Assembly (NCBI GenBank): GCA_003647275.1
Contig: QMMN01000007.1
Coordinates: 6,830 to 70,829, forward strand
Direction: 5' to 3'
Source: Deltaproteobacteria bacterium
GTDB lineage: Bacteria; Desulfobacterota; Desulfobacteria; Desulfobacterales; C00003060
DNA: 64,000 nt
Below are positions 41,601 to 55,399 of the stretch, piece after piece (the stretch's first letter is position 1; every line of letters starts with the position of its first letter). The notes under the pieces were generated by a model that was given only the letters and a program-made list of their open reading frames with translations, was not told the origin of the DNA and searched no databases. The translations under genes and the position numbers were made by a program.

Positions 41601-42476
41601 GCAAATCACTTTTGTATCCTGGCGTTCGGTAAGCTTGGAGGCTCTGAACTCAATTACAGTTCAGATATTGACCTCCTGGGAATTTATGATGCCCCTGCCA
41701 CGTCTCTGGGGTCCAATGCTCACACCTTTTTGCAAAAGCGCTTCGCCCGGGTCATGGAAAGCGTACGAGCAGACCTTTCGATGCATACAGACGAGGGGTA
41801 TGCATATCGCGTGGACCTGCGACTCAGGCCATATGGTGGAGCGGGCGAACTCGTCCCCTCTGTTTCAGCACTCATAGATTATTATCGAAACGTGGCATCC
41901 CTCTGGGAAATTCAGGCAGCCCTTAAGATTCGGCCGGTGGCAGGCCACCTACAAATAGGTGACCATTTCCTTGAGAAGATCCGCCCTGTTCTTTTGCAAC
42001 GTCGCAAACGCGAGGCCATTGTCCATGCCATTGAAAAAATGCGCAAAGCGGCCATCAAAACCTGTTCTCGTCGCAATAGGCCCATCAGGGATGTGAAAAG
42101 CGGCATGGGTGGTTTGCGCGACGTGGAATTCCTGGTTCAAGGGCTGCAGCTCATCCATGGACCAGACCATCCCGGGTTGCTGGAGAGAAATACCCTGAAC
42201 GCCCTGGAGGGACTCCAAAAGACAGACATTCTACCTGAACCAGTGGCAGCGCAACTCAGGGAAGACTACGTGTTCTTGCGACGAGTCGAACACTATCTTC
42301 AAATTCTAGAAGATCGTCAAATACATGCCCTGCCAAAAGACCCTGATGAGCTGACCGCACTGGCCAAAAGGGTCCTTGGCGCTGAAGGGAATGCAAGCCA
42401 TTTCATGGAACAACTGGAGGGATGTCTGAAGCGCATACGGGCCGCCTATATCTCGTACCTGGTGGAAAGCAAGTGA
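38670..42476 (+). CDS. glnE: Glutamine synthetase adenylyltransferase/adenylyl-removing enzyme with an N-terminal tandem ACT-like extension
   Basis: Two nucleotidyltransferase halves (GKMGGAALGYASDIELLFVY and GKLGGSELNYSSDIDLLGIY). The first ~330 aa hold two ACT-like segments (NCTVLAFDYPYLFSLITGVLAGMGFNIVSGDVFTY and YTRLKIVSEDTPAFLYTLTNALSLQGISIEHVSIRTIHGRVEDEIEV). The start is uncertain: TTG 38619 or ATG 38670. Confidence 0.85.
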   Translation: MKPTLDMLKAACPEVDQRLLNAHLSRLSNRYFDRFATHQVCEHMKGLSRISTEHPVEVLLDAKGDGNVNCTVLAFDYPYLFSLITGVLAGMGFNIVSGDVFTYERALDKPLIDVCRRKLTSRRTVQDPLKRRRIIDFFSGQLETSRAPETWSDDLKKNMEDVISLLERGDSESVTDAKHRVNEMVVKRLADLHMDSHPVLFPVQIEFDNESGPYTRLKIVSEDTPAFLYTLTNALSLQGISIEHVSIRTIHGRVEDEIEVVDVRGKKIEDPNVLSRVKLSVLLTKQFTYFLGKAPDPYVALHRFEQLVGDVLRLPERGQWMDLLSNPHALQDLARLLGTSDFLWEDFIRLQYETLLPMLKPFLEGHRFSEPVDQLSQRLRNAIKGINKLEEQRRRLNEFKDREIFLIDLDHILNPETDFRVLARRLTVLAENVVNMAAELAYAHLVKRFGRPRTAADLEATFAILGLGKMGGAALGYASDIELLFVYSDNGSTDGEESIENAEFFDRLVRNTTQFIQAKREGIFNVDLRLRPYGNNGPLACSLENFCRYYGPEGSAHSYERLALVRLRAIGGDKNLAARVERIRDQMIYASRNINLKELRELRNKQFKEKTEAGKLNAKFSPGGLVDLEYAVQVLQVMYGKDVPQLRTPRIHEALTALTVAGVLSPVETEQLTAAYGFLRRLINGMRMLRGSAKDLFLPPIDSDEFAHLARRMEYKGGGALDPTGQLHMDVETHMATVRAFVERHFGRDSLPGSATGTVADLVLSDRVPHDLRHQILSGAGFKNPARAYVNLRALAGDESRRQTFARLALLAFDILLRTPDPDMALNNWERYIRALPSPEFHYNILLSQPMRLEILLSVLSGSQFLADTLVRNPGFLDWVTIPKNLHQIQGRKNLEDELRMASEGCNSHKVWLNKLRRFRRREMLRIGTRDIYLGVSTEDVMLELSTLAEALTQVVLERVWATLKEEQETAQEVEAIANHFCILAFGKLGGSELNYSSDIDLLGIYDAPATSLGSNAHTFLQKRFARVMESVRADLSMHTDEGYAYRVDLRLRPYGGAGELVPSVSALIDYYRNVASLWEIQAALKIRPVAGHLQIGDHFLEKIRPVLLQRRKREAIVHAIEKMRKAAIKTCSRRNRPIRDVKSGMGGLRDVEFLVQGLQLIHGPDHPGLLERNTLNALEGLQKTDILPEPVAAQLREDYVFLRRVEHYLQILEDRQIHALPKDPDELTALAKRVLGAEGNASHFMEQLEGCLKRIRAAYISYLVESK

Positions 42477-42513
42477 TCTCCCTTCAGGGCAGGAGAGGAT
42501 TCACACTTCTTCT

Positions 42514-44265
42514 TTACTGTAAAGGGAGACGCAGGATAAAAGTTGTGCCTTTTCTTAATTCGCTCTGGCATTCAATAGTCCCGCGATGAGCCTCTACAAT
42601 GGTCTTGACGATCGACAACCCGAGGCCAGTACCCTTTTTGCCTTTGGTTGTAAAGAACGGGTCGAATATCTGTTCTAAGATATCCGGCCCGATCCCAGGT
42701 CCTGTATCTTCTATCCTGACCACAAGGTGCTCTCCCTCAATCCTTCCTTCAATACTGATGTTTCCTGAATCAGTCATCGCCTCCAGGCTGTTTTTGACCA
42801 AGTTATTCAAGACCTGGTACATAAGGCGGGGGTCTACATTGACGGGGGGCAAGTCAGCGGGCCAGTTGAGTTCAAGGTGGATTCCTCTTTTTTCAGTATC
42901 AGGCTGATGGATCAATAAGACCTCTCGAATCATTGCATCGATTGATCTCCTTTCTAAGCGCAGTTCCGGTTTTTTGGCAAATTGCAAGAAATTGTGGATA
43001 AACTCCCTGACCCGCGCTGATTCCTTTTCCAGTATCTTCAGTGCATTTTTCCCCGTCGGGCTGAGAGCTTCGCCCTTCAGAGTAGCCTGGATCATTCCTA
43101 CATTGTTGAGAAGGTTGCCCACCTCATGGGTTACCTTGCTGGAGGTCGTGCCAAGGACGGCTAAGTTCTTGGCGTGGGCAAGTTCCCTGGCTGTCTCTAC
43201 TTCCCGCCTTATAAATTTCTTAAGCGAAGCTGTCATCTCATTAAAGGCCAGACCTAGATCGCCAATCTCGTCCTGCGAGTCAACAGACACCTTCTGATCT
43301 AAGTCGCCCTGGCCTATTCGTTGAACCTGGCGATGCAGGTTGTGAATCGGAGTTAAGAAGCGTTTTACCCAATTCCACCCGAGGAGGATAGCTGCAAGGC
43401 AGATTAAACAGGTTATAAAGGCTGCCCGATAAATATTCTGGTATAGATATGCATAGATCTCCGGATAGGTCTGACTCAAGACAATAACCCAATCAAAGCC
43501 CGGGATATAGTAGCCCAAACAGTAGAACTTGGTTTCGTCCCTTTCTTCGATCCATTCGATCGGCGTATCTGATTCTCGGAGTTCTTTGAGTATGTCCGGT
43601 TTTTTTGCCGGAGGGGTTGTTACGACCCGGTCAATCTTCCGGTGTGCGATAAATCGTCCCGATAGATCCATGATATACACCTGACCCGTGTGACCTATAG
43701 CAATTCCCTCCAGTACATCCCAGACAGACTTGAGGTTTAATTCGCCCCAGAGGACCTCTTTTACCTCGCCTAAGCGTAATACAGGGACGGCTATATGAAT
43801 GTAAGGGATATTCTCTTTGGTCAGCATGACACCAGAAATGGCGTTTTGGCCCATAAGGACTTTCTTAAAGATCTCGCTTTGACTAAAGGTAATGTCATCC
43901 CCTTCCCGACCGGTAGATACGATCTCGTTTCCTTCTATGGAAATCAAAGAAACAGACATAAATTCAACAGCCATATGATTGAAAGCTGTCAGGGCCATCT
44001 CTTTTTGCCACCGATCCAGTTTGGTGGCAGCCATCACCAAGGCAAGGCCTTCCAAACCCTTTTGGGCATGTTCCATGTAAAGGCGAATCTCGCCGGCCGA
44101 GCTTTTGATGATATTTCTGTAATCCTGGTTTATCGTTTTCAGGAAATAATTATAGCTTGTCCAGGAAAGGATCACGCTGGTAATGATTATAGATAGGATC
44201 AGGAGGGGGAGGATAAAAAGGAGGAACTTATAGATTAATTTTGTCTTTTTGATTCTATTCATCAA
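42514..44265 (-). CDS. Sensor histidine kinase (TM, large extracytoplasmic sensor domain, TM, HAMP, HisKA, HATPase)
   Basis: Two hydrophobic segments flank about 240 aa (a Cache-like position, not verified). HAMP-like LHRQVQRIGQGDLDQKV, H-box VTHEVGNLLNN, N-box NLVKNSLEAM, G-boxes EDTGPGI and GTGLGLSIV. Confidence 0.85.
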   Translation of the reverse strand: MMNRIKKTKLIYKFLLFILPLLILSIIITSVILSWTSYNYFLKTINQDYRNIIKSSAGEIRLYMEHAQKGLEGLALVMAATKLDRWQKEMALTAFNHMAVEFMSVSLISIEGNEIVSTGREGDDITFSQSEIFKKVLMGQNAISGVMLTKENIPYIHIAVPVLRLGEVKEVLWGELNLKSVWDVLEGIAIGHTGQVYIMDLSGRFIAHRKIDRVVTTPPAKKPDILKELRESDTPIEWIEERDETKFYCLGYYIPGFDWVIVLSQTYPEIYAYLYQNIYRAAFITCLICLAAILLGWNWVKRFLTPIHNLHRQVQRIGQGDLDQKVSVDSQDEIGDLGLAFNEMTASLKKFIRREVETARELAHAKNLAVLGTTSSKVTHEVGNLLNNVGMIQATLKGEALSPTGKNALKILEKESARVREFIHNFLQFAKKPELRLERRSIDAMIREVLLIHQPDTEKRGIHLELNWPADLPPVNVDPRLMYQVLNNLVKNSLEAMTDSGNISIEGRIEGEHLVVRIEDTGPGIGPDILEQIFDPFFTTKGKKGTGLGLSIVKTIVEAHRGTIECQSELRKGTTFILRLPLQ

Positions 44266-44430
44266 CGACCGAACCTGGACAAGCTGGAATTAAACAAGCG
44301 AAGGGACTCATCACGCCCCCCCTCAAGGCGGACGCCATAAAACACGAAAGAAACAGGAATGGCGAGGCTACTGGCAGGTACGTATAAAAGATCCTTTACT
44401 CATTGTAAAGAATATTTAAAGGGGTAAGAT

Positions 44431-44483
44431 ATGAACTGCAACAGCGAGCGCATTCCCCGCAGCTTGCTCCAGGGGGCTTCAAT
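44431..44483 (+). repeat. 53-nt interspersed repeat, copy 3 of 3
   Basis: ATGAACTGCAACAGCGAGCGCATTCCCCGCAGCTTGCTCCAGGGGGCTTCAAT lies in the MFS-to-kinase spacer. Confidence 0.7.
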
Positions 44484-44489
44484 GAATAA

Positions 44490-45668
44490 TTATCTCTTTG
44501 CCAGAAGGGATGCCGAAACCATAATAAAAGAGCCGGTCAATAGAAGGGATTGGGGGCCCCATATCTTTAATACGAGGGCGCTGCTTAATATGGTCCCTAA
44601 ATAACATGCGCCTCTGTAAGTTGATAACAATGATATGGTTTTCCCTATATGGGTCCTCGGGCTGTTTTGCTGGATGAGGCTTTCCAAAAAGATATGTATT
44701 AAGGTAAAGCCGCAACCAAACAGGATCATCAGCAAGGCAACCTGGATGTAGGTCGTGAGTTGACCAAGGATGGCCATGGCGCCCCCGAGGATCAAAAAGG
44801 TGAAGGAGAGGATGGTTTGCTGCCTGAAGGTTGATGAACATCTGGGCAACAGGAAGGTAGCCAGGCAGGAACCAGCCTGAAATCCAGACATGATCAATCC
44901 CCAATCAGCAATATTCCTCCCAAAATGTATCTTAAAAAAAATGGGAAGACCAAGATTTAACACCCCGCCTCCCAGGAGGACAAACCCGAAGATCATAAAA
45001 TAGGCCTTGAGGTCATGATTGTCTGTAAATGGCTCTCTGTACTTAAAAAGCAAAGGCCTTAGACCTTTACCTCGCCTCAGACAATGGGTCGATTGTTCAG
45101 CGATCTGACCAAATTTCGGAAGTCCGTAAATGGCGCACACCGAGAGTGTGAAAAGAAGCCCGGCCAGCCCTAAAGCGACCCCCTGACCTGTTTTCAGGAC
45201 AATCCATCCGATGAGCCATGGACCGAATATCCGCCCTACAAGAGATACCCTTTCATTAAGTGAGTTAAAAGAGATAAGCTCATCTTTGGGTATCAACATG
45301 GGGGTCAGGGAAAGTCGCCCGATATGGAAAAAGAGAGAACCAATCATAAAGCAAAGATAGGCAGGAAAGATGACCCAGAGGGATGCTTTAAAGACAAGGA
45401 TCCCGACCAAAAGGCATTTGCTTAGATTGACGATGATGAGCCACCTTCTTCCCCCGACCCGATCAATCCAGAAGCCCGCAAAAGGGCTCAGGAAGATAGA
45501 AGGTGCCTGCTCAATGACGCACATCACCAGGAGATTGGATAAGGCACGCTCACCCTTAAAAATCAGCAAGTCGAGCAGGGTTAATTGGACGAACTGGTTT
45601 CCCAGATCTGACAGAAGATCAGCCGATATGATCAGGTACTTGGGGTGAATCCGGTCAATCCCTTTCAC
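44490..45668 (-). CDS. MFS transporter (putative exporter of the adjacent peptide locus)
   Basis: 392 aa, hydrophobic throughout with about 11-12 predicted helices. Its GTG start overlaps the corrected rSAM stop as GTGA. Confidence 0.75.
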   Translation of the reverse strand: MKGIDRIHPKYLIISADLLSDLGNQFVQLTLLDLLIFKGERALSNLLVMCVIEQAPSIFLSPFAGFWIDRVGGRRWLIIVNLSKCLLVGILVFKASLWVIFPAYLCFMIGSLFFHIGRLSLTPMLIPKDELISFNSLNERVSLVGRIFGPWLIGWIVLKTGQGVALGLAGLLFTLSVCAIYGLPKFGQIAEQSTHCLRRGKGLRPLLFKYREPFTDNHDLKAYFMIFGFVLLGGGVLNLGLPIFFKIHFGRNIADWGLIMSGFQAGSCLATFLLPRCSSTFRQQTILSFTFLILGGAMAILGQLTTYIQVALLMILFGCGFTLIHIFLESLIQQNSPRTHIGKTISLLSTYRGACYLGTILSSALVLKIWGPQSLLLTGSFIMVSASLLAKR

Positions 45669-46980
45669 GCTGCTTTTTTCAGGCGGATATTCTCTCCCTG
45701 AGACAAAACCGCAGAGGCCCTCTGTCTGATGTAATCTTCAAGAAAAAAACGATAGGTATTGTAATGACAATCGACCCCGTTAAAATCCTTCTCATGAACC
45801 AGGGCCTGCATGCGGCACCCCCCATGCAGATGGGCAGAATGGGGCATTTGTTGAGACATCTGTCCGGTAATCTTCGCTTCAGTAGTTGGGATTCTGAGAC
45901 AAAGTCGATCCCTTTGGTGACGTGTCCATAGGCCATTTCCCCACCTTGAAGGGATGGGCATGGGATAATCGAGCCATCTGTGTCAAAGACAAACCGGGCT
46001 CGAAAATCAGCCATACAGGTGTTGGAGGGGGCCTCACGATCCTGCAGATAGCCCCGTTTTTCAGCCTCCTGCATCAGGTATTGAAGTATTTTAGGATCGC
46101 CCATCCCGGAATCATAGGGGCTTTCTCCTCTTCTGGCCAGGATGGGGGTGAAGGTGATGTTTTCAATAGCAATATGGCGCTCGCCCATATCATCCAGCAT
46201 CTCTGGAATGCTCAGAAAATCAAGTGCCCCGCTGTCGTATTGACATTCAATGTTGATGGGAATCAGACCGGAAACAGCCTGTAGATTCTCCATGATCAGG
46301 TCATAGGTCTTCCCATTATTCTTGGAGGGCCGCAAAAAATCGTGAACAGGGGCCGGCCCGGCCAGGCTGACCCGAATGCCTGTGAGTCCTACCTCTTTCA
46401 TGCCCGAGATCATGGATGGCCTGAGGAGCGTGCCGTTGGTGGTAATGGTAAAGCCATATTCGATCCCCCTGCCCAGGCAGTAATAAAACCGCCTGGCAGC
46501 ACTTTCTAAGATGATCTCAGAATTAAGGAGCGGCTCACCCCCAAGGTAGTCGTCTTCAACCCTCTGAGGGTTCTTTTCCTGGATGATCTCAATGTAGAAC
46601 CGGTCCATGGCCCGGGCTGTGTCAGGGGACATCTCCCTGGCTTCAGGGTCCAGGATGCAGTAGCGACATCGATTATTACATTTCCGGGTGACCAGGACCT
46701 TGGATCTTAATGTGCTGAAGTCATGGACGTATTGTTGCTTCCAGTTCTCAAACACAATGGTTTCGTCCACGCCCTCCTTGACCAGGAATCCCTGGTCACA
46801 GAGCATATCGATGGCAGCCGGATCGGCTGGTGCGACGGGATCGCTCAGGATATAAGACCAGGTCTTTTCAGGGATCAGGATAAAGGCCCCTGTCATGGTC
46901 TGATAGAGGGCGATGAGCGCTTCTCGGCTGTTTTCAACAGCAATATCCACCGTGAATCTGGATTTCTTAAAAAAAGCCAT
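45665..46980 (-). CDS. Radical SAM/SPASM peptide-maturase-like enzyme, interrupted by an apparent 1-nt frameshift in a G6 run (ORF-track pieces 45679-46980 and 45665-45961)
   Basis: CNNRCRYC (CxxxCxxC) at aa 101-108, after a ~100-aa N-terminal extension (RRE-like position). CX13GX4C (CMADFRARFVFDTDGSIIPC). After a frame shift at the C-run 45818-45823, the C-terminus reads CLNKCPILPICMGGCRMQALVHEKDFNGVDCHYNTYRFFLEDY, which completes the SPASM cysteine pattern. Confidence 0.8.
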
Positions 46981-46995
46981 GATGTGATCTCCTTT

Positions 46996-47035
46996 AAAAA
47001 CGGCCCCCCGGGCAAACCAGGTCTGCCCGGGGGCC
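46996..47035 (-). terminator. Intrinsic terminator/attenuator hairpin between the precursor peptide and the rSAM gene
   Basis: The minus strand reads GGCCCCCGGGCA-gacctggtt-TGCCCGGGGGGCC (12 bp, one bulged G), followed by GTTTTT and then the rSAM RBS AAAGGAG. Confidence 0.55.
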
Positions 47036-47051
47036 TAAAATAGTCGTCGGG

Positions 47052-47141
47052 TTAGTTGCGGGAGCTTGGAGCATTTCCACAGCACATGAGTCCTGACTTT
47101 TTGACCCTGTATGTGCCCTTGTTGATCACAATCAGTTTCAT
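47052..47141 (-). CDS. Putative RiPP precursor peptide, 29 aa: MKLIVINKGTYRVKKSGLMCCGNAPSSRN
   Basis: Absent from the ORF track because it is below the size cutoff. ATG at 47141 is preceded by AAGGAGG with a 9-nt spacer, and TAA is at 47052-47054. It lies 71 nt upstream of, and co-oriented with, the rSAM/SPASM gene. The C-terminal half contains a Cys-Cys pair. Confidence 0.6.
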   Translation of the reverse strand: MKLIVINKGTYRVKKSGLMCCGNAPSSRN

Positions 47142-47402
47142 GATCGCACCCCTCCTTTCTTGAGTGATTTCAGTCATAACATTAGCCAATGCGCGCCTGG
47201 CTGGTGTTTTTTCATTATCAGGATGTGTGCCATGATTTGAGATCTGTGAGGGGATTGTCTATCTCATTGTTATTGTAAGGAAAGAGGATATGGATCAAGG
47301 GATGAAGAGGGCTTTTGAAAGAGTAAGGGTTTGAACTTTTTGAGGGTGAGTTTGAACAGCGTGGATATAAGTGTTAACTTGGCGCGTCCTTGAAACTGTG
47401 AG

Positions 47403-47470
47403 GCCTCCCCGTGCTTCCGCACGGAGGGTTCTGCCTGACGGCAGCGCTTCGCGTCCGGGGAGCAAGCCGG
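47403..47470. repeat. GC-rich multi-hairpin (cloverleaf-like) repeat, copy 2
   Basis: It has the same outer helix CTCCCCG/CGGGGAG and the identical segment TTCTGCCTGACGGCAGCGCTTCGCGTCCGGGGAGCA. The first hairpin is GTGC-ttcc-GCAC instead of GCCC-tccc-GGGC. Confidence 0.7.
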
Positions 47471-47526
47471 GTCAAACCAATCCTCAAGCAAACCGGTCCT
47501 CAAGCCCGCCAAAGGCGGACGCGCCT

Positions 47527-49101
47527 CTAACCCGATTTAAGCGAGGCATATCTGAGGCGGTAGATCCCTTCGTGGGTGAGAGAAAACGGGAAAGGCAATT
47601 TAAACCGTTTGGACATCACATCAATGGCTGTTTTATGAAACAAAAACGTGCCAGGCTGAAGCGCTTGGATCCGGGCATCGATCTTATAAAAAAGCGCTTT
47701 TTGCTTGAATGGGTCTTTTTCATCAAGGGCCTGACAGATCAGGCGGGTCACCTCAGGATCTTCAAATGAACCAGCCTCAGACCTTTTGGGGCGATCAAAA
47801 GACCATGACTGTTTCAAGAATTCAGGATCCCGGTAAACGCCTCTCAACTCTGTTAGCACGGCCTGAAACTGATTGTTTCTATAGTATCTTCTTTTAAGCT
47901 CCTCAAAAGGAACGGATTGCAGGCGCACCTTGATCCCGAGATCATTCAGGCAAATCTGCAGGTATTGGGCGACCTTTTTTTCAATCTGGCTCTCTTTAAA
48001 GACAAGGATAGTAAATTCAAACCCCTTTCCACCCTTTTCAAGATAGCGGCCCTCATGATCATAAGACCAGCCTGCTTGTTTCAGGAGCGCCAGTCCCTTT
48101 TTGGGGTTGTATGGTATGGGTTGGACCTCGGGGTTGTGATAAGGGGAGTCCACCCCCATGGGGCCGACTGCAATCCTCCCAAAGCCCCTTAAGATCTTCT
48201 TTACGATGTATGCCCTGTCAATGGCATAAGAAAAGGCGAGTCGAACCCTTGGATCAGAAAAAAGGGGATCGGTTGTATTGTAGAGGAGGATCGTGTACCA
48301 ACGCAGAGGGTAGAGATCAAAATAGTATCTTTTTCCATACTGCTTCATCATCTCATAGTTTTTGGGGGAAATCTCCTGTGCAATATCTGTCTCCCCTGAA
48401 AGGACCCTTGTCCATGACTTTTCTTTGTCCGGCTGAAAATAGAAGACAACTCGATCTATGGAAGGGCGGCCATGAAAATAATCTTTATTCGCCTCAAGGC
48501 AGACTTCCTTTTCTCCTTTTCTGTATTTGAATCTAAACGGGCCAGAGCCAATGGGGTGATTGTAATAATCGATCTTATCTTCATGGGGTTGAGGAAGAAT
48601 CTCCATGTCCCAGATCTTTTGAAGAAATTCAGGATCGTTTCTCTTAAGACCAATACAAATAACCGTATCTGACAAAGGAAAGATCCGGTCTATTAGAGAA
48701 AACAAAGCAGGGCGATTGTTCTTTAGCACCCCCTCCAATGCATACTGGACATCCCTTGAAGTCACAGGGTGTTTGTTGTGGAACAGGGCGTCTTTTCTGA
48801 GATGGATCGTCCAGGTAAAACTCTCGGAATCATAGGTCCATTTGAGGGCCAGATCCGGTTCGAGTTCTCCGTTGGCATTTGGGACAAAAAGATAACTGTA
48901 CAACAAAGGGAAGATATGGTTTGAACCGGAGGCATAAACATATGTGGGATTCAAAGAGGTAAAAGGGGCGCTCACATCATAGCGAAGGACATTTTCATTT
49001 TTGTTTTTTTCCCTGGCAGGAGGGGTGCCAGGTTGTTCACAGGAAAGAATAAAACCGGTAAAGAAAATAAATACTAGGATTGAACTCAGATATCGAAGCA
49101 T
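47527..49101 (-). CDS. ABC-type family-5 (peptide/nickel/opine, OppA/DppA-like) substrate-binding lipoprotein, with no adjacent permease or ATPase
   Basis: 524 aa. Signal peptide with a possible lipobox (FILSC) and family-5-like blocks (LRYDVSAPFTSLNP, GSGPFRFK). No cognate membrane components lie nearby. Confidence 0.8.
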   Translation of the reverse strand: MLRYLSSILVFIFFTGFILSCEQPGTPPAREKNKNENVLRYDVSAPFTSLNPTYVYASGSNHIFPLLYSYLFVPNANGELEPDLALKWTYDSESFTWTIHLRKDALFHNKHPVTSRDVQYALEGVLKNNRPALFSLIDRIFPLSDTVICIGLKRNDPEFLQKIWDMEILPQPHEDKIDYYNHPIGSGPFRFKYRKGEKEVCLEANKDYFHGRPSIDRVVFYFQPDKEKSWTRVLSGETDIAQEISPKNYEMMKQYGKRYYFDLYPLRWYTILLYNTTDPLFSDPRVRLAFSYAIDRAYIVKKILRGFGRIAVGPMGVDSPYHNPEVQPIPYNPKKGLALLKQAGWSYDHEGRYLEKGGKGFEFTILVFKESQIEKKVAQYLQICLNDLGIKVRLQSVPFEELKRRYYRNNQFQAVLTELRGVYRDPEFLKQSWSFDRPKRSEAGSFEDPEVTRLICQALDEKDPFKQKALFYKIDARIQALQPGTFLFHKTAIDVMSKRFKLPFPFSLTHEGIYRLRYASLKSG

Positions 49102-49104
49102 TTA

Positions 49105-50241
49105 TTATGATAGAAAAACCTCAGAGAGTCTGTATCTGGACTGATTTGCCTTTTTTTTATTATGCACACAGATATGGTTCTTTTTCAATATAGAAAGATA
49201 TTTGCCTGCTGTTCCGTATTTATTCCTGTCGGATTTGGCCTTGTCACTCAGGAACCTTGCAAACTCGAGCCGGGAAAATGGTCTTTGGCTGGTCTTTAAA
49301 AGAAATTCATGGATGGTCTCTATGGTGGTACACTTCAAGGTGCGATGCCATTGTTTTGCTGCCCCGCCATTATCAGATATGGTCGCTCCCTTTAGCACCG
49401 CTAAGAGCTCGTCACTCTTAACGCTGGCGTAAGCCTCATATTCTCTCCCTGACCCGTTTGATATTTCTTCGGGAAGGTCTTGAATGGTTATCTCCCTTTG
49501 TTTGGTTAGGATAACCGCCCGTTCGATGATGTTTTCCAATTCCCTGATATTTCCGGGAAATGAATAGTTCATCAGGACCTCAAGGGCCTTGTTTGATATC
49601 CCCAGAATATCTTTTTTGTTTTCACAGGCATATTTTGCCACAAAATGATCAACCAGGGGCGGGATATCCTCTTTATGGTCTCTCAAAGGGGGAAGCTGAA
49701 TCTGGATAACATTCAGACGATAAAACAGATCCTCCCTGAACCAACCTTCCTGAACGCCTTCCTTCAGGTCTTTATTGGCGGCCGCGATGAAGCGTACATC
49801 CACCTTGATGGTCCTGGTGCCTCCGACCCGTTCAAATGCCATCTCCTGGAGTACCCTCAGTAATTTGACCTGAAGGGATAGAGACATCACAGAAACCTCA
49901 TCCAGGAAGAGGGTGCCCTTATCCGCCAGCTCGAATCGGCCTTTTTTCATGGCAATAGCCCCGGTAAAAGCCCCTTTTTCGTGTCCAAACATCTCGCTTT
50001 CACACAGGTTATCAGCCATGGCCGAGCAGTTGACCGCAATAAAGGGTTTGTCTCTCCGTGGGCTATGATCATGAATGGCCCTGGCAATCAACTCTTTTCC
50101 TGTTCCACTTTCCCCGACAATCAGTACCGTGGCCCTGGTGGGGGCAACCATTTCGATGAGTTCATAGATCTTTAACATGGGTCCGCTTTTCCCCACCATA
50201 TTATGAAAGTGGGGTTGTTGGATAGCTTCTTGCGGTAACAT
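49105..50241 (-). CDS. Sigma-54-dependent activator consisting of an AAA+ domain with an atypical C-terminus (no receiver or sensor domain)
   Basis: Starts about 15 aa before the AAA+ core. [14 protein letters not shown] (HEKGAFTGA), and FPGNIRELEN. The last ~120 aa lack the usual AA-LG-SR-TLYRK Fis-type HTH signature. Confidence 0.8.
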   Translation of the reverse strand: MLPQEAIQQPHFHNMVGKSGPMLKIYELIEMVAPTRATVLIVGESGTGKELIARAIHDHSPRRDKPFIAVNCSAMADNLCESEMFGHEKGAFTGAIAMKKGRFELADKGTLFLDEVSVMSLSLQVKLLRVLQEMAFERVGGTRTIKVDVRFIAAANKDLKEGVQEGWFREDLFYRLNVIQIQLPPLRDHKEDIPPLVDHFVAKYACENKKDILGISNKALEVLMNYSFPGNIRELENIIERAVILTKQREITIQDLPEEISNGSGREYEAYASVKSDELLAVLKGATISDNGGAAKQWHRTLKCTTIETIHEFLLKTSQRPFSRLEFARFLSDKAKSDRNKYGTAGKYLSILKKNHICVHNKKKANQSRYRLSEVFLS

Positions 50242-50336
50242 ATGCGCCTCCTTCCTTGCTCGGTCGTATCCGATCGGTCACACAAAGGGTTTATAAAAAA
50301 CACTATAGGTGAACTAGGGCTAAGGGAGGAGTCATC

Positions 50337-52211
50337 TTAAAACTCAAAGTTTACCCCGCCCTCAATCCAGCGATCAGGTTGAGGAAAGACGTGGCGGTAG
50401 ATGTAGGTAGAGTTGGTAAGATTGTGTACAGCACCAAAGAGAGTTAGGTCGCCGTATCGGTCCGGAAAAGGGGGTTTGACCTGAAGGAGATAGTCAAAGA
50501 TAAAGACGCGATCTCGGGTCTCGGGGTAGCTGGAATAGTTATAGACATATTTTCCGACAATGGAATGGGTCATCCATTGATGTGTGTAGGAGGCCGAGAC
50601 ATTATAAAGGGTCCTGGGGATATCCTGGATCACCTTGTCGGTCTCTTCATCTCTCACATCCATAAAGCTCCCGCCGAATGAGAGGGTCAACCCAAAGCCA
50701 AAGGTGGCCCGGATGTTGCCTTCTACGCCCTGCCGGGTGACCTTATCGATATTTTCATACTTTTTGGTGTCCGGGTTATAGCGGATGAGGTCCTTGATGT
50801 CCGCCCGAAAAAGGTTCAGTTCGAGCCTCAGGAACCTGAAGGGTCGCACCTCGCCGCCAAGCTGATAGTTTATCCCGGCCTCTGGTTTCAGGTCCTTGTT
50901 GCCATACTGGGGATCGTTTACCCAGGCACCGGGTGGGGCTGAAAAGCCTTTAGCGACCTGGGCTCGGATAAGGGCATCCACGCCTGAAATACGATAGACC
51001 ATTCCGCCCGAAGGGCTGACCTCAGAGCCAAAATCATGGTTATCATCATAGCGAGCCCCGGCATTAAAAGAGAACGCTTCCAGGTTGAAGGTATCATTGG
51101 CATAAATGGCCCAGTTTCTGGAGTTATACTCTTTGGCATAAGAGCTGAAATCGTATCGGCCCCAATCCCCGTCAAACCCCAGATTAAACCTGTTTAAATC
51201 ATTGGTGTAGTAACTCAGCCGGGCACTGCCCCCCCAGGTCTCCTCTAAGTAATGGAAATAGTTTTCCCTGTGATCAGGATAAACATCGTCAATCCAGTTA
51301 AAGAATCGATGATGCCGTCCCTCAAGAGTCAGATCAAGATTTTCAACAGGCGAGGTCTCAAAGAGAAGGCGTTGGTAGGTGCGTCTGCGATAGAGGTCAT
51401 CCCAGAAATCCGGATAATTAAGAACGGGATCTGCATTGCGGCCCACATCATAGCTGTAGGCAAAGTTAAGGCGACTTGTCTCACCCAGTTCATGGTTGAT
51501 TTTGGCATATACGGCCTCCTGTTCGTACCCGGTATGCTCGATGAACCCGTTGCTCTCCTCATGGGTAAGGGAGAGTAGGAACCCAAAACGATCCTTCGTA
51601 CCGCTGAAGGTTCCGCGGTTCTTTAAGGTTTTAAACTCTCCATAAGAGGTGCGGAGATCGGCCACAAACGGCTTTTTGGGGTCGGGTTCTTTGGTGATGA
51701 TGTTGATCAAACCACCCAGGGAAGAACCCCAGGCCGAGGAGGCCGCCCCCTTGTAGATCTCGATCCGCTCGATCGTATCAATGGGAATATAAGAAAGGTC
51801 AGCCATGGGATTGGCCAGTTGGTTGAGGGGGATCCCATCCTGATAGATGGCCACATGCCGGACGTCAGAACCCTGGATGGTAGCCGTGGACTGGCTCCCC
51901 AATCCACCGTTAAACTCCACGTAGATACCTGGTACATACTGGAGCACCTCGGCCGCATTGGAGGCCGGCATCTTTTCTATATCATCCCTGGTAATAACCG
52001 TGATGTTTGCAGCGACCTCCTGTCTGGGGGTCTCCAGGCGGGTGGCAGTCACCACGATTTCTTCCAATTTATATTCATGGACTTCGGGTCCGGAAGGCAT
52101 ATCTGCTGCCCAAGCTTTCAAAAAGAACATAACCCAAAGAACAGAGCTAACAATAAGAACTACCTCAGTTTTCGGTTGTTTCATCCAACTCGTAATTCTT
52201 AATTTTTTCAA
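50337..52211 (-). CDS. TonB-dependent outer-membrane receptor (small, BtuB/CirA-sized)
   Basis: Signal peptide ending AWA, TonB-box/plug EEIVVTATR, and a plug domain. The C-terminal beta-barrel ends in GGVNFEF (terminal aromatic). The likely start is the internal Met at 52184. Confidence 0.85.
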   Translation of the reverse strand: MKKLRITSWMKQPKTEVVLIVSSVLWVMFFLKAWAADMPSGPEVHEYKLEEIVVTATRLETPRQEVAANITVITRDDIEKMPASNAAEVLQYVPGIYVEFNGGLGSQSTATIQGSDVRHVAIYQDGIPLNQLANPMADLSYIPIDTIERIEIYKGAASSAWGSSLGGLINIITKEPDPKKPFVADLRTSYGEFKTLKNRGTFSGTKDRFGFLLSLTHEESNGFIEHTGYEQEAVYAKINHELGETSRLNFAYSYDVGRNADPVLNYPDFWDDLYRRRTYQRLLFETSPVENLDLTLEGRHHRFFNWIDDVYPDHRENYFHYLEETWGGSARLSYYTNDLNRFNLGFDGDWGRYDFSSYAKEYNSRNWAIYANDTFNLEAFSFNAGARYDDNHDFGSEVSPSGGMVYRISGVDALIRAQVAKGFSAPPGAWVNDPQYGNKDLKPEAGINYQLGGEVRPFRFLRLELNLFRADIKDLIRYNPDTKKYENIDKVTRQGVEGNIRATFGFGLTLSFGGSFMDVRDEETDKVIQDIPRTLYNVSASYTHQWMTHSIVGKYVYNYSSYPETRDRVFIFDYLLQVKPPFPDRYGDLTLFGAVHNLTNSTYIYRHVFPQPDRWIEGGVNFEF

Positions 52212-53520
52212 TAAGGGTTTTGCGGCTTATACCCAATAAATCAGCCGCTTTGGTCTTATTGTTTTTTGTACGTCTCAAGGCCAGACCGATAAAAAACCTC
52301 TCCACATCCCTCAAGTCCAGATCAGATATTTTCTCATACTCTCCTTTCCCAAATGGAAGGTGTTTGGTGGTGATCATATTATCCTGGCAGGTTATCACGG
52401 CCCTCTCTATGACGTTTATCAGTTCCCGGACATTGCCCGGCCAATCATACTCCCTGAGGGATAACATGGCATTCGTAGAAATACCGGTTATTGGTCGACG
52501 ATACGCCTCACTGAACCTTTTAAGATAGAACTCGGCTATAAGAGGGATGTCCTCCTTTCTATCCCTCAAGGGTAGGATTTCAATCGTATAGATGTTTAAA
52601 CGGTAAAAAAGATCCTGACGAAAGCGACCACAGGCAACCTCTGCTTCCAGGTTGCGGTTGGTGGCCACGAGGAGGCGAAAGTCCGAATATATGGGGTAGA
52701 TTCCTCCCACGCGCATGAAGGTCTTGGTCTCCACGATCCTGAGGAGTTTAGACTGAAAAAAGGGCGGAGCCTCGCTGATCTCATCCAGAAAAAGAATCCC
52801 CTTGTGAGCCACCTCGAAAAGACCTATCTTTCGATCTATCGCACCAGTAAAGGCCCCTTTTTCATGGCCGAACAACTCACTTTCCAAAACCCCGAGGGCA
52901 AATTCATTGCAACTTACTGCAAAAAACGGCTTATCGCGCCTGTCGCTTAGATTATGGATGGCCCGGGCAACCAGCTCCTTCCCTGTACCGGTCTCCCCGC
53001 AGATAAGGACAGTCACAGGAAGATCAGCGACCTCCTCTATGGATCTAGCGACCTTCTTGATTCCCTCTGATTGTCCTATGATGGTCACCGGCGTTTTTAT
53101 CTGGAGGGACCTTTCTCTACGAAGCGAGGCGAGCTCTTTCAATATCTCCCTCTTGGCCAAGGCCTCCCGAACGGTTATCCAAAATAGATCTAATTTGTCG
53201 TTGATCGGCTTTTCAAAATAATGGAAGGCCCCGCGCTTGACCGCCTGGATAGCCCCTTCTGTAGAGCCGAAGGCCGTAATCAGGATAACGGGGATATCAG
53301 GATACAGGTCCTGAACCCTGCTAAAAAGCTCGGTCCCGCTCATCTCAGGCATCTGCACATCTGAGATAATCAGGTCTACAGGCTCCTTGTTCAGGACCTC
53401 GAGCGCCTTTTTGGCCGATGTGAGAGGAACGATATCAAAGCCCTGTGCCCCTTCTAAAGAGAGGAAAAGTTCCAGGAAGGCTTCATTATCGTCTATCAAC
53501 AGAATCTTGGGCTTGCTCAT
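52165..53520 (-). CDS. NtrC-family sigma-54-dependent response regulator (REC-AAA+-Fis HTH)
   Basis: REC (ILLIDDN...DLIISDVQMPEMSG), GETGTGKE, GAFTGA, and C-terminal KAADLLGISRKTLIEKIK. Confidence 0.9.
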   Translation of the reverse strand: MSKPKILLIDDNEAFLELFLSLEGAQGFDIVPLTSAKKALEVLNKEPVDLIISDVQMPEMSGTELFSRVQDLYPDIPVILITAFGSTEGAIQAVKRGAFHYFEKPINDKLDLFWITVREALAKREILKELASLRRERSLQIKTPVTIIGQSEGIKKVARSIEEVADLPVTVLICGETGTGKELVARAIHNLSDRRDKPFFAVSCNEFALGVLESELFGHEKGAFTGAIDRKIGLFEVAHKGILFLDEISEAPPFFQSKLLRIVETKTFMRVGGIYPIYSDFRLLVATNRNLEAEVACGRFRQDLFYRLNIYTIEILPLRDRKEDIPLIAEFYLKRFSEAYRRPITGISTNAMLSLREYDWPGNVRELINVIERAVITCQDNMITTKHLPFGKGEYEKISDLDLRDVERFFIGLALRRTKNNKTKAADLLGISRKTLIEKIKNYELDETTEN

Positions 53521-53747
53521 AATAAGGTGTTTGCTGACAAGTACCTATGAAATTCATTCGAAAATGTCCATATTTTTTATCAAAGAAAGTCTCTTCCCGC
53601 CCTTCTGTGTAGAATCGTAACACTGAATTAACGCAACAAATCGCAATATTGTAACCTTTTGTAACAGTAAAACGCCTGGCTCATTTCTGCCCCGAGAATT
53701 AAACTCGGATTACAGATGGTTAAGGTCCATTTGGAGAATTGTTTTTT

Positions 53748-53762
53748 TGGCATCATGATTGC
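53748..53762 (+). promoter_or_regulatory. Sigma-54 (-24/-12) promoter of the stand-alone receiver gene
   Basis: TGGCATCATGATTGC with correct spacing, 47 nt upstream of the first ATG (53809). Confidence 0.65.
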
Positions 53763-53808
53763 TAAAATTTTTATTAAAATGCTAACCTAATATTTTGCAA
53801 TAGCAGAG

Positions 53809-54300
53809 ATGCCCCGATGTATGAGGCATCCTGATGATAGGAGATGGATAACCCTGAACGCCCAAATGCTTGGTAAACCTGTTCAGATTTTGTTGGTGGA
53901 AGACAATCCTGGGGATGTGCGCCTGACGCAGGAAGCCCTCAAGGACAGCAGGATGCTTGACAACCTGCATATAGCCAAGGATGGCCTGGAGGCCATGGCC
54001 TTCCTGCACCGAGAAGGCCGGTATACTGACGCGCCTCGTCCAGACTTGGTCCTGCTCGACCTGAACCTGCCAAAGAAAGCCGGTCGTGAGGTGCTCGCAG
54101 AGATAAGGGCCGACGAAAGCCTGAGACGAATCCCTGTGGTGGTCTTGACCACGTCCCAGGATGAAGAAGACATCATCAAGGCCTACAATCTCAACGCGAA
54201 CTGCTATATTACCAAACCGGTTGAGTTGGAACAGTTCTTCAAAGTGGTGAAGTCGATCGTAGAGTTTTGGTTTACCGTTGTGAAACTGCCAGGTGAGTGA
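53809..54300 (+). CDS. Single-domain response regulator (receiver only)
   Basis: ILLVEDNPGDVRL, DLVLLDLNLPKKAG, PVVVLTTS and YITKP. The start could instead be Met20 (53866). Confidence 0.85.
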   Translation: MPRCMRHPDDRRWITLNAQMLGKPVQILLVEDNPGDVRLTQEALKDSRMLDNLHIAKDGLEAMAFLHREGRYTDAPRPDLVLLDLNLPKKAGREVLAEIRADESLRRIPVVVLTTSQDEEDIIKAYNLNANCYITKPVELEQFFKVVKSIVEFWFTVVKLPGE

Positions 54301-54317
54301 AAAAATAGACGGATATC

Positions 54318-54473
54318 TTGCCTGAACCGGTGGCAGCGCAACTCAGGAAATCCGACGTGTTTTTTTGCGGCGGATCGAACACGATCTTCAAATTCTTGAA
54401 GTTCGTCAAATAAAATACATGCCCCGCCAAAAGACCCCCATGAACCAACCGCACTGGCCAAAAGGCTCTTGGT
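54318..54473 (+). pseudogene. Decayed fragment duplicating the 3' region of glnE (cf. 42231-42379)
   Basis: CCTGAACCGGTGGCAGCGCAACTCAGG...TCGAACACGATCTTCAAATTCTTGAAG...CGCACTGGCCAAAAGG aligns with the glnE codons for LPEPVAAQLREDYVFLRRVEHYLQILEDRQ...TALAKRVLG. By eye about four-fifths of positions are identical. Indels break the frame, so it translates as LPEPVAAQLRKSDVFFCGGSNTIFKFLKFVK then stop. Confidence 0.75.
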
Positions 54474-54802
54474 CTAGATAAACCCTTCACAGGCTATTTC
54501 CAAACCACGACAATCCAGGTTTCAGCCATCTTTTGGTGTTTGTCAGCCTCATGCCAGGTGTACGGCTGTTTGGCTCAACATCCTGTAAGGAGGGCTGGCC
54601 AGCAGCAACGTGGCCACTCATTATTGTGAATGAATCATAGAAATCTTCAATAACTAATAGGCAAAAAAATCAATATTACCTATTTGACAGGTGTATGAAA
54701 GCAAGAGACAATTCTATTTTTTGGAGAAAGGGCGTCAGTCGGCCTGATGCCGACAAGGACCGCTGACAGCAGCTCAATTCATCCGATAAAGGGGGAGGTC
54801 AT

Positions 54803-55399
54803 ATGGAAACATTGAATTGCCGGGGGCTTGCCTGTCCACAGCCTGTACTCAGGACCAAGCACTTTGTGGAATCCAATCCCCAGGTCCCGGAATTCACCAT
54901 CATCGTCGATAATGCTGCCTCAGCCCAAAATGTGGTCCGGTTTGTGGAGAGCCAGGGTTTTAGTGCCTCTCTGCAACAAAAGGGCACTGACTTTGAAATC
55001 AAGGCTATAAAGTCTGAGGAAATCGGTGCCGAAGCCGCTGGGAGGGGAGAGGTTAAGTCGAGCGAGAAGATCCTGGTGATGATCACCAAAAATACCATGG
55101 GTTCTGGAGATGATGTGCTGGGGGAAGGGCTCATGTTAAATTTTTTAAACACCCTTAACGAGATGGGCGAAGCCCTTTGGAGATTGGTTTTCCTCAACAG
55201 CGGGGTAAAGCTGACGATTGCGGGGGCCAAGACCTTGCCTGCCATACAACAACTGGAGGCACAGGGTATTAGCGTCCTGGTATGCGGTACCTGCCTGAAT
55301 CATTTCAATCTGCTGGACCAAAAGCGGGTGGGTGAGACCACGAACATGCTTGACATTGTGACAAGCCTACAGCTTGCCGACAAAGTGATCGGTGTGTGA
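54803..55399 (+). CDS. yedF: YedF-like protein (TusA/SirA-like N-domain with a CPxP motif plus a DsrE-like C-domain); sulfur/selenium carrier family
   Basis: LNCRGLACPQPVLRTK (TusA-type Cys-Pro-x-Pro). The C-terminal half ILVMITKNTMGSGDDVLGEGLM...VLVCGTCLNHF matches my memory of YedF. 198 aa. Confidence 0.65.
   Translation: METLNCRGLACPQPVLRTKHFVESNPQVPEFTIIVDNAASAQNVVRFVESQGFSASLQQKGTDFEIKAIKSEEIGAEAAGRGEVKSSEKILVMITKNTMGSGDDVLGEGLMLNFLNTLNEMGEALWRLVFLNSGVKLTIAGAKTLPAIQQLEAQGISVLVCGTCLNHFNLLDQKRVGETTNMLDIVTSLQLADKVIGV

Follow-up and report, generated by a model that had tools for sequence, protein, structure and literature searches.

A conserved radical-SAM peptide locus with siderophore-style transport genes in Desulfobacterales: a candidate metal-carrier system with sigma-54 control

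The 64-kb window analysed here (the whole stretch of 64,000 nucleotides taken from contig QMMN01000007.1 of a Desulfobacterales genome) carries on its minus strand, at 42514-53520, a cluster in which a very small peptide with two adjacent cysteines is encoded next to a radical S-adenosylmethionine (rSAM)/SPASM enzyme, an exporter, a TonB-dependent receptor, a solute-binding lipoprotein and regulatory genes. [quoted passage not shown] Searches with Pfam and NCBIfam recovered every element of that list in its place, and all eight long genes, the peptide gene and a hairpin run one way. From upstream to downstream, the features are as follows.

52165-53520, minus strand: NtrC-type sigma-54 response regulator, with Pfam Response_reg (receiver, REC), Sigma54_activat (AAA+, with GAFTGA) and HTH_8 (Fis-type helix-turn-helix, HTH)
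50337-52211, minus strand: TonB-dependent outer-membrane receptor, with Pfam Plug and TonB_dep_Rec_b-barrel and the TonB box EEIVVTATR
49105-50241, minus strand: AAA+-only sigma-54 activator, with Pfam Sigma54_activat (15-182) and AAA_lid_14 (187-266) only; GAFTGA present
47527-49101, minus strand: family-5 (cluster C) solute-binding lipoprotein, Pfam SBP_bac_5 (E 3e-70), with a lipoprotein-type signal ...FILSC
47329-47380, minus strand: candidate enhancer (upstream activator) sites, TTCAAAC at 47329-47335 and 47350-47356, about 21 nt apart, and AAGTTAACACTT at 47369-47380
47217-47232, minus strand: sigma-54 (-24/-12) promoter TGGCACACATCCTGAT, its GG 90 nt upstream of the peptide ATG
47052-47141, minus strand: precursor peptide gene, 29 amino acids (aa), MKLIVINKGTYRVKKSGLMCCGNAPSSRN, with the strong ribosome-binding site AAAGGAGG
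47002-47035, minus strand, with a T-run down to 46996: GC-rich hairpin of 13 bp between the peptide and rSAM genes
45665-46980, minus strand: rSAM/SPASM peptide maturase with a broken frame; Radical_SAM, and SPASM after correction by one G
44490-45668, minus strand: major facilitator superfamily (MFS) transporter of the EntS or 'transmembrane secretion effector' type, with Pfam MFS_1 and MFS_3 (MFS_3 being the EntS-type family)
42514-44265, minus strand: sensor histidine kinase, with Pfam dCache_1 (periplasmic), HAMP and HATPase_c

A cluster conserved as a unit

Scanning genomes with a profile of 20 orthologues of the rSAM enzyme yielded 27 loci with rSAM identities of 49-84%, all from Desulfobacterales, other Thermodesulfobacteriota and Syntrophobacteraceae; 26 of these are informative upstream of the rSAM gene. 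Their neighbourhoods were compared by tblastn with the window proteins and by an independent all-against-all clustering of open reading frames (ORFs) of at least 90 aa, and the two approaches agree. Six families recur, namely the rSAM enzyme (25 loci), the binding protein (22), the kinase (20), the TonB receptor (18), the sigma-54 activators (17) and the MFS transporter (17), and most absences fall at contig ends. Beyond these six, no recurrent family was found in the 26 loci, i.e. no permease, ATPase, TonB-ExbBD system or protease, and the flanks differ from genome to genome.

The usual order is regulator, receptor, (AAA+-only activator), binding protein, peptide, rSAM, (MFS) and kinase. An orthologue of the NtrC-type regulator adjoins the receptor gene in related loci, as seen by tblastn, the MFS gene directly follows the rSAM gene in 17 related loci, and full-length orthologues of the AAA+-only activator are present in about nine (L001, L011, L013, L019-L021, L023, L026 and L077). 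In L004, L021, L023, L024, L027 and L077 the set is rearranged yet stays together; in such loci the kinase gene has either the receptor gene or the binding-protein gene beside it, and it comes after the receptor in L023 and L024. Two Syntrophobacteraceae loci (L015 and L022) differ in that no transport genes lie within 10 kb of the rSAM gene. Because synteny, peptide, promoter and hairpin recur across the 26 loci, the association is not due to chance and the cluster is conserved as a unit. The synteny to which the first-pass annotation had tied its proposal is thereby borne out: Cys-Cys peptide, family-5 binding protein, MFS transporter, TonB receptor and kinase/regulator stay with the rSAM enzyme down to 49% identity.

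Conservation extends further, to sister clades with 31-37% rSAM identity, which keep the binding protein, the Cys-Cys peptide, the rSAM enzyme and the MFS transporter:

L084: sigma-54 activator, binding protein, MLLIDKALWTVDENALLCCRPGPDAYYM, rSAM, MFS, TonB receptor; peptide at 8712-8798, tail CCRPGPDAYYM
L085: binding protein, MKKQTPKKLVIIKKGAYGVRLDGRWCCYAAQYVRGG, rSAM, MFS; peptide at 1362-1472, tail CCYAAQYVRGG
L088: kinase, MFS, binding protein, ...KNTSCCPSIAPTMEA, rSAM, with a TonB receptor 5 kb away; peptide at 6450-6587, tail CCPSIAPTMEA

Adjacent cysteines are the one feature common to all sister-clade peptides. Judged from these loci, the module predates the orthologous group, and the pattern suggests a wider superfamily of Cys-Cys peptide systems. 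When 1.8 billion cluster representatives were searched exhaustively with the enzyme, about a dozen rSAM clusters exceeded 40% identity, followed by a tail at 30-37%; the search returned 92 relatives at E<=1e-30 and 3,986 at E<=1e-10.

Peptide, maturase, transport and control

The 29-aa Cys-Cys ORF that the first-pass annotation had picked out as the precursor has homologues of 27-37 codons in 25 of the 26 loci. The Cys-Cys, the Pro and the penultimate Arg are invariant, and the alignment reads M-K-x-I-V-V-K-K-G-T-Y-[KR]-V-[RK]-K-S-G-M-x-C-C-x2-3-[GAS]-P-x2-R-x-stop. Entropy is highest at third codon positions (1.42 bits versus 0.84 and 0.88), and the substitution pattern is therefore that of a translated gene; a six-frame regular-expression scan of 1.3 Mb returned 26 true copies and nine chance matches. 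The peptide gene always lies directly after the binding-protein gene. In 24 loci it has a ribosome-binding site and is found about 70 nt upstream of the rSAM gene; in Desulfosarcina (L021 and L077) it keeps its place after the binding-protein gene, with the rSAM gene about 5-6 kb away. Neither Pfam nor NCBIfam yielded a family for the window peptide, and ten of the peptides searched against NCBIfam at E<=10 gave none either. We presume that the basic, likely beta-strand N-terminal part (KLIVxxKGTYRV) is the leader and that CC-x2-3-[GAS]-P-x2-R-x is the core, a segment that is conserved, not hypervariable.

Public gene calls on three metagenome contigs, L078, L079 and L080, omit the peptide gene altogether, and in the D. 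ovata record it appears with too long an N-terminus, as a hypothetical protein of 55 aa. In L077 (Desulfosarcina ovata AP021876; 4807-7282) and L021 (3536-6979) the binding-protein and peptide genes are followed by a membrane protein of ~700 aa with weak M48/M56 peptidase matches, the rSAM, MFS and kinase genes lying several kb further on; this protein could be a lineage-specific leader peptidase or a sensor. As a dedicated leader peptidase for the system it was set aside, given that outside Desulfosarcina no M48/M56-like protein comes after the peptide and that the family as a whole conserves no protease. At about 9300-10000 of L021, upstream of the rSAM gene, repeated translated motifs (GRVERxETxxP...) suggest inserted repetitive elements where other genomes have the peptide gene. 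Inside the clusters of L021 (3695-4885) and L020 (11232-12665) lie unannotated proteins with a zinc-protease-like HELxHxLxGH (HExxH) motif, which share that motif only (two-sequence E 0.005) and gave no match in Pfam.

The rSAM frame of the window is interrupted in a run of six G at 45818-45823, one G short, and the last two invariant SPASM cysteines are out of frame in the raw sequence. Adding one G produces a 438-aa protein with a SPASM domain ending CX3CX5CX3C, motif CLNKCPILPICMGGC...C. An intact database protein (P0001) is likewise 438 aa long and 99% identical to the corrected enzyme, and the three independent contigs named above (JGI 3300033150, 3300033141 and 3300033148), with 99% DNA identity over 11.2 kb, all have seven G. 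The only other indel relative to the near-identical contigs is a single base at 47469 (versus L078), which is intergenic and upstream of the peptide promoter. Because near-identical contigs have G7 and an intact protein exists, the break is most likely a homopolymer sequencing or assembly error, and the frame correction that the first-pass annotation had called for is warranted.

After correction, the rSAM/SPASM identity assigned at first pass rests on scores above both cut-offs (PF04055, 52 bits against 29.5; TIGR04085, 42.4 bits against 27). Twelve cysteines are invariant in the 20 orthologues, including the CX3CX2C motif (C101, C105 and C108) and the SPASM cysteines C322, C341, C375, C379, C385, C389 and C405, the set for two auxiliary Fe-S clusters. 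In NCBIfam the enzyme scores 203.6 bits with the TIGR04280 geopeptide model (cut-off 400), 109 with CefB, 108 with TIGR04463, 100 with Clo7bot, 90 with PapB (cut-off 340), 88 with CcpM, 55 with the SCIFF maturase (cut-off 425) and 52.7 with the anaerobic sulfatase maturase (anSME) model TIGR03942 (cut-off 349), and its nearest curated hidden Markov models are all maturases of Cys-containing peptides. Since every family score falls below its cut-off, the enzyme is related to the curated families but belongs to none of them. Ten sister-clade representatives behaved in the same way, with TIGR04280 scores of 143-345 bits, none at the cut-off of 400, and with that model the nearest for nine of the ten.

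An AlphaFold2 (AF2) model of the enzyme (predicted local distance difference test score, pLDDT, 76.5) has an N-terminal domain of three strands (10-15, 22-27 and 33-37) and three helices (38-46, 54-62 and 73-85), with pLDDT 73-87 over residues 10-85. This predicted domain resembles a RiPP recognition element (RRE), in which three strands precede three helices, and no RRE sequence model matches the N-terminus. Foldseek with the AF2 model returned as best match the thermocellin thioether synthase CteB (5WHY/5WGG; E 1e-17), aligned over its full length including the N-terminal RRE, followed by SuiB, anSME, TigE and ChlB. The enzyme groups with RRE-bearing, leader-dependent peptide maturases and not with anaerobic sulfatase maturases, a grouping that the first-pass annotation had named as counting against its model: it scores 204 bits with the geopeptide model versus 53 with anSME, and in the fold search anSME comes after CteB and SuiB, its alignment leaving out the N-terminal domain (377-388 versus 441-466 columns). 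There is no sulfatase gene in the locus.

On the transport side, the receptor is of BtuB/CirA size and lacks an N-terminal signalling extension. Its start is probably the ATG at 52184, which makes the gene overlap the end of the regulator gene, and public annotation of a 99%-identical contig gives a receptor of 615 aa, in line with that start. The best NCBIfam and PDB matches are BtuB, yet the score of 185 bits against a cut-off of 600 (TIGR01779) places the protein outside the BtuB family; the PqqU structure 9C4O is also among its PDB matches. The binding protein scores highest with NikA-type models (NikA/Opp5A; 157 bits with NF045468 and 147 with TIGR02294), then with Opp4A (108), CntA (94, NF047575), GsiB (71), DppA (66) and OppA (47), and stays below every curated cut-off (393 for TIGR02294, 600 for NF045468 and 800 for NF047575), so that we treat the NikA/CntA-type scores as a lead and not as membership. 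Its nearest PDB sequences are an unnamed family-5 protein, AppA, NikA and HbpA. The first-pass annotation had described it as a lipoprotein with neither permease nor ATPase, and indeed no Opp/Nik-type ATP-binding cassette (ABC) permease or ATPase was found among the scanned long ORFs of the window or recurring in related loci; the sole ABC system found in the scanned ORFs carries its own NMT1-type binding protein. Neither a FecCD permease nor a Peripla_BP_2 binding protein is present in the locus or in related loci. Two paralogous copies of the family-5 binding-protein gene were seen in L008 (1431-4554) and in L023 (1423-2970 and 8053-9600). The MFS transporter matches 2A0121 and EntS in NCBIfam below cut-off, and the GTG start of its gene overlaps the TGA stop of the rSAM gene (GTGA), the two being translationally coupled.

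Control of the peptide operon appears in the DNA upstream of it. A relaxed sigma-54 pattern matches the window at TGGCACACATCCTGAT and nowhere else, and 22 of the 26 loci have GGCA[CT]-N5-NTG[CA] 72-105 nt upstream of the start codon of the peptide, for a background expectation of 0.02 per locus. On the strength of this promoter match and of the two sigma-54 activators in the cluster, we conclude that the peptide operon is sigma-54 dependent. No sigma-54 promoters were found upstream of the other cluster genes on the minus strand, the only other site on that strand of the cluster lying inside the binding-protein gene. We infer that the promoter would take its input from the dCache kinase and the NtrC-type regulator, presumed partners, and from the AAA+-only activator where present. 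The latter has no receiver domain and no HTH_8 or other HTH recognisable by Pfam, and its C-terminal tail of ~110 aa matched no family. The TTCAAAC repeats upstream are, by sequence, a candidate enhancer: the block is conserved in the closest loci, being found in the window, L001-L003, L013 and L027 only. As a general enhancer the repeats were rejected, since they are confined to the closest clade and the single TTCAAAC motif is not enriched in the window; we retain them as a candidate.

The hairpin noted at first pass is likewise in place, with its 13 bp and T-run. It has a dG of -31.6 kcal/mol (z = -2.8) and was flagged as terminator-like by a consensus scan. The 60 nt that follow the peptide stop surpass in folding 98% of the other 60-nt windows from the same locus in 18 of 26 loci (94% in 23 of 26); stem sequences vary among loci while the structure is kept, and a T-run occurs in some copies only. 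Its probable role, as a leaky terminator or 3'-end stabiliser, is to set the ratio of peptide to enzyme, with precursor in excess, an arrangement common in RiPP operons. A scan of 42000-55000 with Rfam (E<=1) found no riboswitch, cobalamin riboswitches included; the only match was a chance one of the hairpin to a frameshift element.

Two neighbouring regions of the window may be recorded here. A long run of glutamine- or nitrogen-linked genes at 5945-42476 comprises asparagine synthase, a GAF-sigma-54 activator, CTP synthase, a 1245-aa GATase+SIS protein, a second GATase, the large chain of carbamoyl-phosphate synthase, GMP synthase, glutamate-synthase-like subunits, a glutamine-dependent NAD synthase, GlnA and GlnE, and looks like a group of clustered glutamine-amidotransferase genes. 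Divergent from the cluster, on the plus strand, a good sigma-54 -24/-12 match (TGGCATCATGATTGC, 53748-53762) lies ~50 nt before the gene of a CheY-like single-domain response regulator (53809-54300), a neighbour that is not kept in related loci.

Function of the modified peptide

That the locus produces a RiPP with siderophore-style export and recapture seems to us very probable, and the first-pass proposal of export, capture and re-import combined with rSAM chemistry finds support at the level of parts and synteny. We envisage that the sigma-54 promoter would drive a small operon of peptide, hairpin, rSAM and MFS, in which the hairpin would keep the precursor transcript above that of the enzyme. 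The basic leader of the 29-aa precursor would be gripped by the N-terminal RRE of the CteB-like enzyme, which would act on the C-terminal core around the invariant Cys-Cys...Pro..Arg and most likely install one or two sulfur-to-carbon (thioether) cross-links. The EntS-like pump would then send out a product of roughly 1-3 kDa, to be recaptured by the dedicated TonB-dependent receptor and held in the periplasm by the lipoprotein; from there it may pass to an unlinked permease or be unloaded, and/or be sensed by the kinase, which would close a positive loop. In habitats that are anoxic and sulfidic, the favoured cargo would be a trace metal limited by sulfide (Ni, Co, Cu or Zn).

We favour a metal carrier because the Cys pair is invariant, the binding protein leans towards NikA, the habitat is sulfidic, the parts resemble those of methanobactin loci, and a TonB receptor is encoded in the cluster. 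Among characterised Gram-negative clusters, such a receptor occurs in ~80% of the siderophore clusters that bear transporters and in none with other activities (Crits-Christoph et al. 2021, PMC7849407). Taken by itself, the metal role is a tentative assignment that we place somewhat short of even odds. Taken as a whole, a RiPP locus with siderophore-style trafficking, with a metal carrier as the favoured product, is the best explanation of the data, with a probability of roughly 0.45. The most far-reaching version, in which the locus would specify the first rSAM-made ribosomal peptide metallophore, an anaerobic and independently evolved counterpart of methanobactin whose two-component/sigma-54 loop senses the returning complex, is more speculative than the carrier role on its own.

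Several observations weigh against a metal carrier. No metal-responsive regulator, riboswitch or metal box was found. The one candidate Fur box, TGATAATGA at the -12 element, was rejected: its first half alone fits the Fur consensus, and other clades do not keep it. Nor did nickel chaperones provide general evidence; cobW (coding for a CobW-family GTPase) and hypA (for a nickel chaperone) lie a few kb past the kinase gene in only two Desulfosarcina genomes (L077, 15278-16435; L021, 19894-21026). If the enzyme acts like its nearest relatives, thioethers on both cysteines would use up the soft thiolate ligands. Two-component and sigma-54 control is commoner in signalling, the cluster does not conserve an inner-membrane importer, a TonB-ExbBD system or a leader peptidase across related loci, and the similarities of the binding protein to NikA and of the receptor to BtuB are far below family cut-offs. 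Lastly, should the frameshift in the window be real, this strain would be unable to make the product.

The most serious alternative, to us somewhat less probable than a metal carrier, is that the modified peptide acts as a signal, between cells or to the producer itself, which would make the system a diderm equivalent of peptide quorum sensing of the agr or Opp-dependent type. The peptide would leave through the MFS transporter and, being too large for porins, re-enter through the TonB receptor; the orphan binding protein would present it to the dCache kinase in the manner of LuxP/LuxQ, or the kinase would sense it directly, and the phosphorylated NtrC-type regulator would fire the sigma-54 promoter upstream of the peptide gene. 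In agrBDCA, a precursor, a maturase/exporter, a kinase and a regulator form an autoinducing-peptide circuit, and here precursor, maturase, exporter, kinase and regulator make up one conserved unit with the same parts list. Several features fit a signal: 22 of 26 loci have the promoter directly upstream of the peptide, two sigma-54 activators are encoded alongside, the regulator and receptor genes overlap, the kinase gene comes after the receptor in L023 and L024, and the binding protein has no permease, like those that serve as co-sensors. The lack of any metal-sensing element among those sought and a thioether chemistry that would remove thiols fit as well. The regulation fits a signalling loop about as well as it fits a metallophore; it does not discriminate between the two, given that siderophore receptors too can be governed by two-component systems which detect the ligand as it returns, as with PfeRS-PfeA of Pseudomonas. 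Against a signal speak the receptor, which has no N-terminal signalling domain, and the invariant Cys-Cys and NikA-leaning binding protein, which are easier to explain by metal chemistry. Moreover, TonB-dependent uptake is costly and known mainly for scarce nutrients, and in characterised clusters the receptor is siderophore-specific (PMC7849407).

It is improbable that the product is an antimicrobial or otherwise outward-acting RiPP of ranthipeptide type, with the MFS transporter serving export or immunity and the uptake and regulator genes as mere frequent neighbours. Many rSAM/SPASM Cys-peptides are reported to be bacteriocin-like, genome-mining surveys of Desulfobacterota list clusters classed as ranthipeptide, and L015 and L022 do without nearby transport genes. 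However, more than 20 genomes keep the six families together through several rearrangements and with changing flanks, the binding-protein gene always has the peptide gene attached to it, the core is not hypervariable, a producer is unlikely to encode an importer for its own toxin, and neither an immunity gene nor an ABC/peptidase exporter is present in the locus or in related loci.

Equally improbable is that the window locus is a decaying remnant which has lost its product and kept at most uptake and sensing, as a 'cheater' would: the window differs from the three contigs with G7 in ~1% of bases, making it a separate strain or assembly, and its SPASM domain is cut before the last two invariant cysteines, but loss of a single base in a homopolymer is the commonest sequencing or assembly error, the one other indel in 11.2 kb is intergenic, the remaining cluster genes are intact, and the downstream frame is open to its normal stop with the GTGA overlap preserved.

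The supply of Ni, Co, Cu and Zn to anaerobes in sulfidic sediments is poorly understood; sulfide makes these metals almost insoluble, and the organisms depend heavily on Ni- and Co-enzymes. To our knowledge, the ribosomal metallophores described so far (methanobactins, bufferins and relatives) all use MNIO enzymes, and an rSAM route with dedicated import would be a second, independent solution as well as a new enzyme-substrate pair acting on two adjacent cysteines. Were the product a signal instead, it would represent a rare case of peptide signalling in diderms, with entry by way of a TonB receptor. In either case the family is well defined, with about a dozen enzyme clusters at 50% identity plus sister clades and a peptide gene mostly missed by public annotation. 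Desulfosarcina ovata subsp. sediminis, which is in culture and has a completely sequenced genome, carries the system, which makes it directly testable.

Comparison with known systems

Full-text literature searches combining rSAM, RiPP, SPASM or ranthipeptide with TonB, metallophore, sigma-54 or sulfate reducers returned generic surveys only and no description of this cluster; metagenome surveys merely report Desulfobacterota clusters that they class as 'ranthipeptide', and the term 'geopeptide' led only to gageopeptides. The closest parallel in terms of parts is methanobactin, the operons of which encode a precursor, a maturase, an exporter, a TonB transporter and a periplasmic binding protein (PMC3621798). 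Shared with these are a precursor with essential cysteines, a dedicated maturase, an exporter of the secondary-transport type, a TonB transporter, a binding protein without permease and a locus-encoded regulation that may sense the returning ligand (PMC3621798). The transport set of TonB transporter, binding protein and exporter is thus present in the cluster, whereas MbnB (MNIO/DUF692) and MbnC are not, no such domain being found in the genes of the locus or in the recurrent families of related loci. The likeness stays at the level of parts: there is no homology beyond generic transporter folds, and the 60 PDB sequences that best match the binding protein do not include MbnE. The maturase is rSAM/SPASM rather than MbnB and MbnC, the exporter MFS rather than MATE, control is two-component plus sigma-54 rather than an extracytoplasmic function (ECF) sigma/anti-sigma pair, and the hosts are strict anaerobes.

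For the enzyme, the nearest characterised relatives are CteB/thermocellin, PapB and the SCIFF-type ranthipeptide maturases, with which it shares the rSAM core, a full SPASM domain, an N-terminal RRE (here a predicted one) and a short Cys precursor encoded directly upstream. Sequence identity is only ~20%, scores are far below the family cut-offs, and the precursors of these systems are unrelated, with six cysteines or CX3D repeats in place of two adjacent ones. We know of no characterised ranthipeptide locus with a TonB receptor and a binding protein, and our literature searches found none. The nearest curated model over the full length, the TIGR04280 geopeptide maturase, is a family defined by bioinformatics only; its score is half of the cut-off, and the peptides match no curated peptide model. 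Pyrroloquinoline quinone (PQQ) offers another likeness, as a product made from a ribosomal peptide by an rSAM/SPASM enzyme (PqqE, with the RRE protein PqqD) and taken up by a dedicated TonB-dependent importer, PqqU. PqqU, however, is encoded outside the pqq operon, PQQ is a redox cofactor, and enzyme and peptide are unrelated to those described here.

With respect to control, PfeS/PfeR-PfeA and PirS/PirR-PirA of P. aeruginosa likewise have a kinase and a regulator encoded beside a TonB-dependent receptor and respond to a periplasmic ligand; in their case the ligand is a foreign siderophore and the regulation OmpR-type and sigma-70, whereas this cluster has an NtrC-type regulator, and the promoter mapped in it belongs to the precursor gene. 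The agrBDCA circuit and the Rgg/SHP system with Opp import, which controls the streptide rSAM operon, combine precursor, maturase/exporter, kinase and regulator in one unit, and in Opp-dependent systems a family-5 binding protein takes part in re-import of the peptide. These systems are Gram-positive, with no outer membrane or TonB receptor, and homology to them is limited to the generic folds of kinase, regulator and binding protein. Seen against this background, the enzyme fold, the transporter types and the logic of export and recapture are all known, and what is new is their combination, i.e. rSAM chemistry on a Cys-Cys mini-peptide that comes with its own TonB receptor, an orphan family-5 binding protein and sigma-54/two-component control, together with the peptide family itself.

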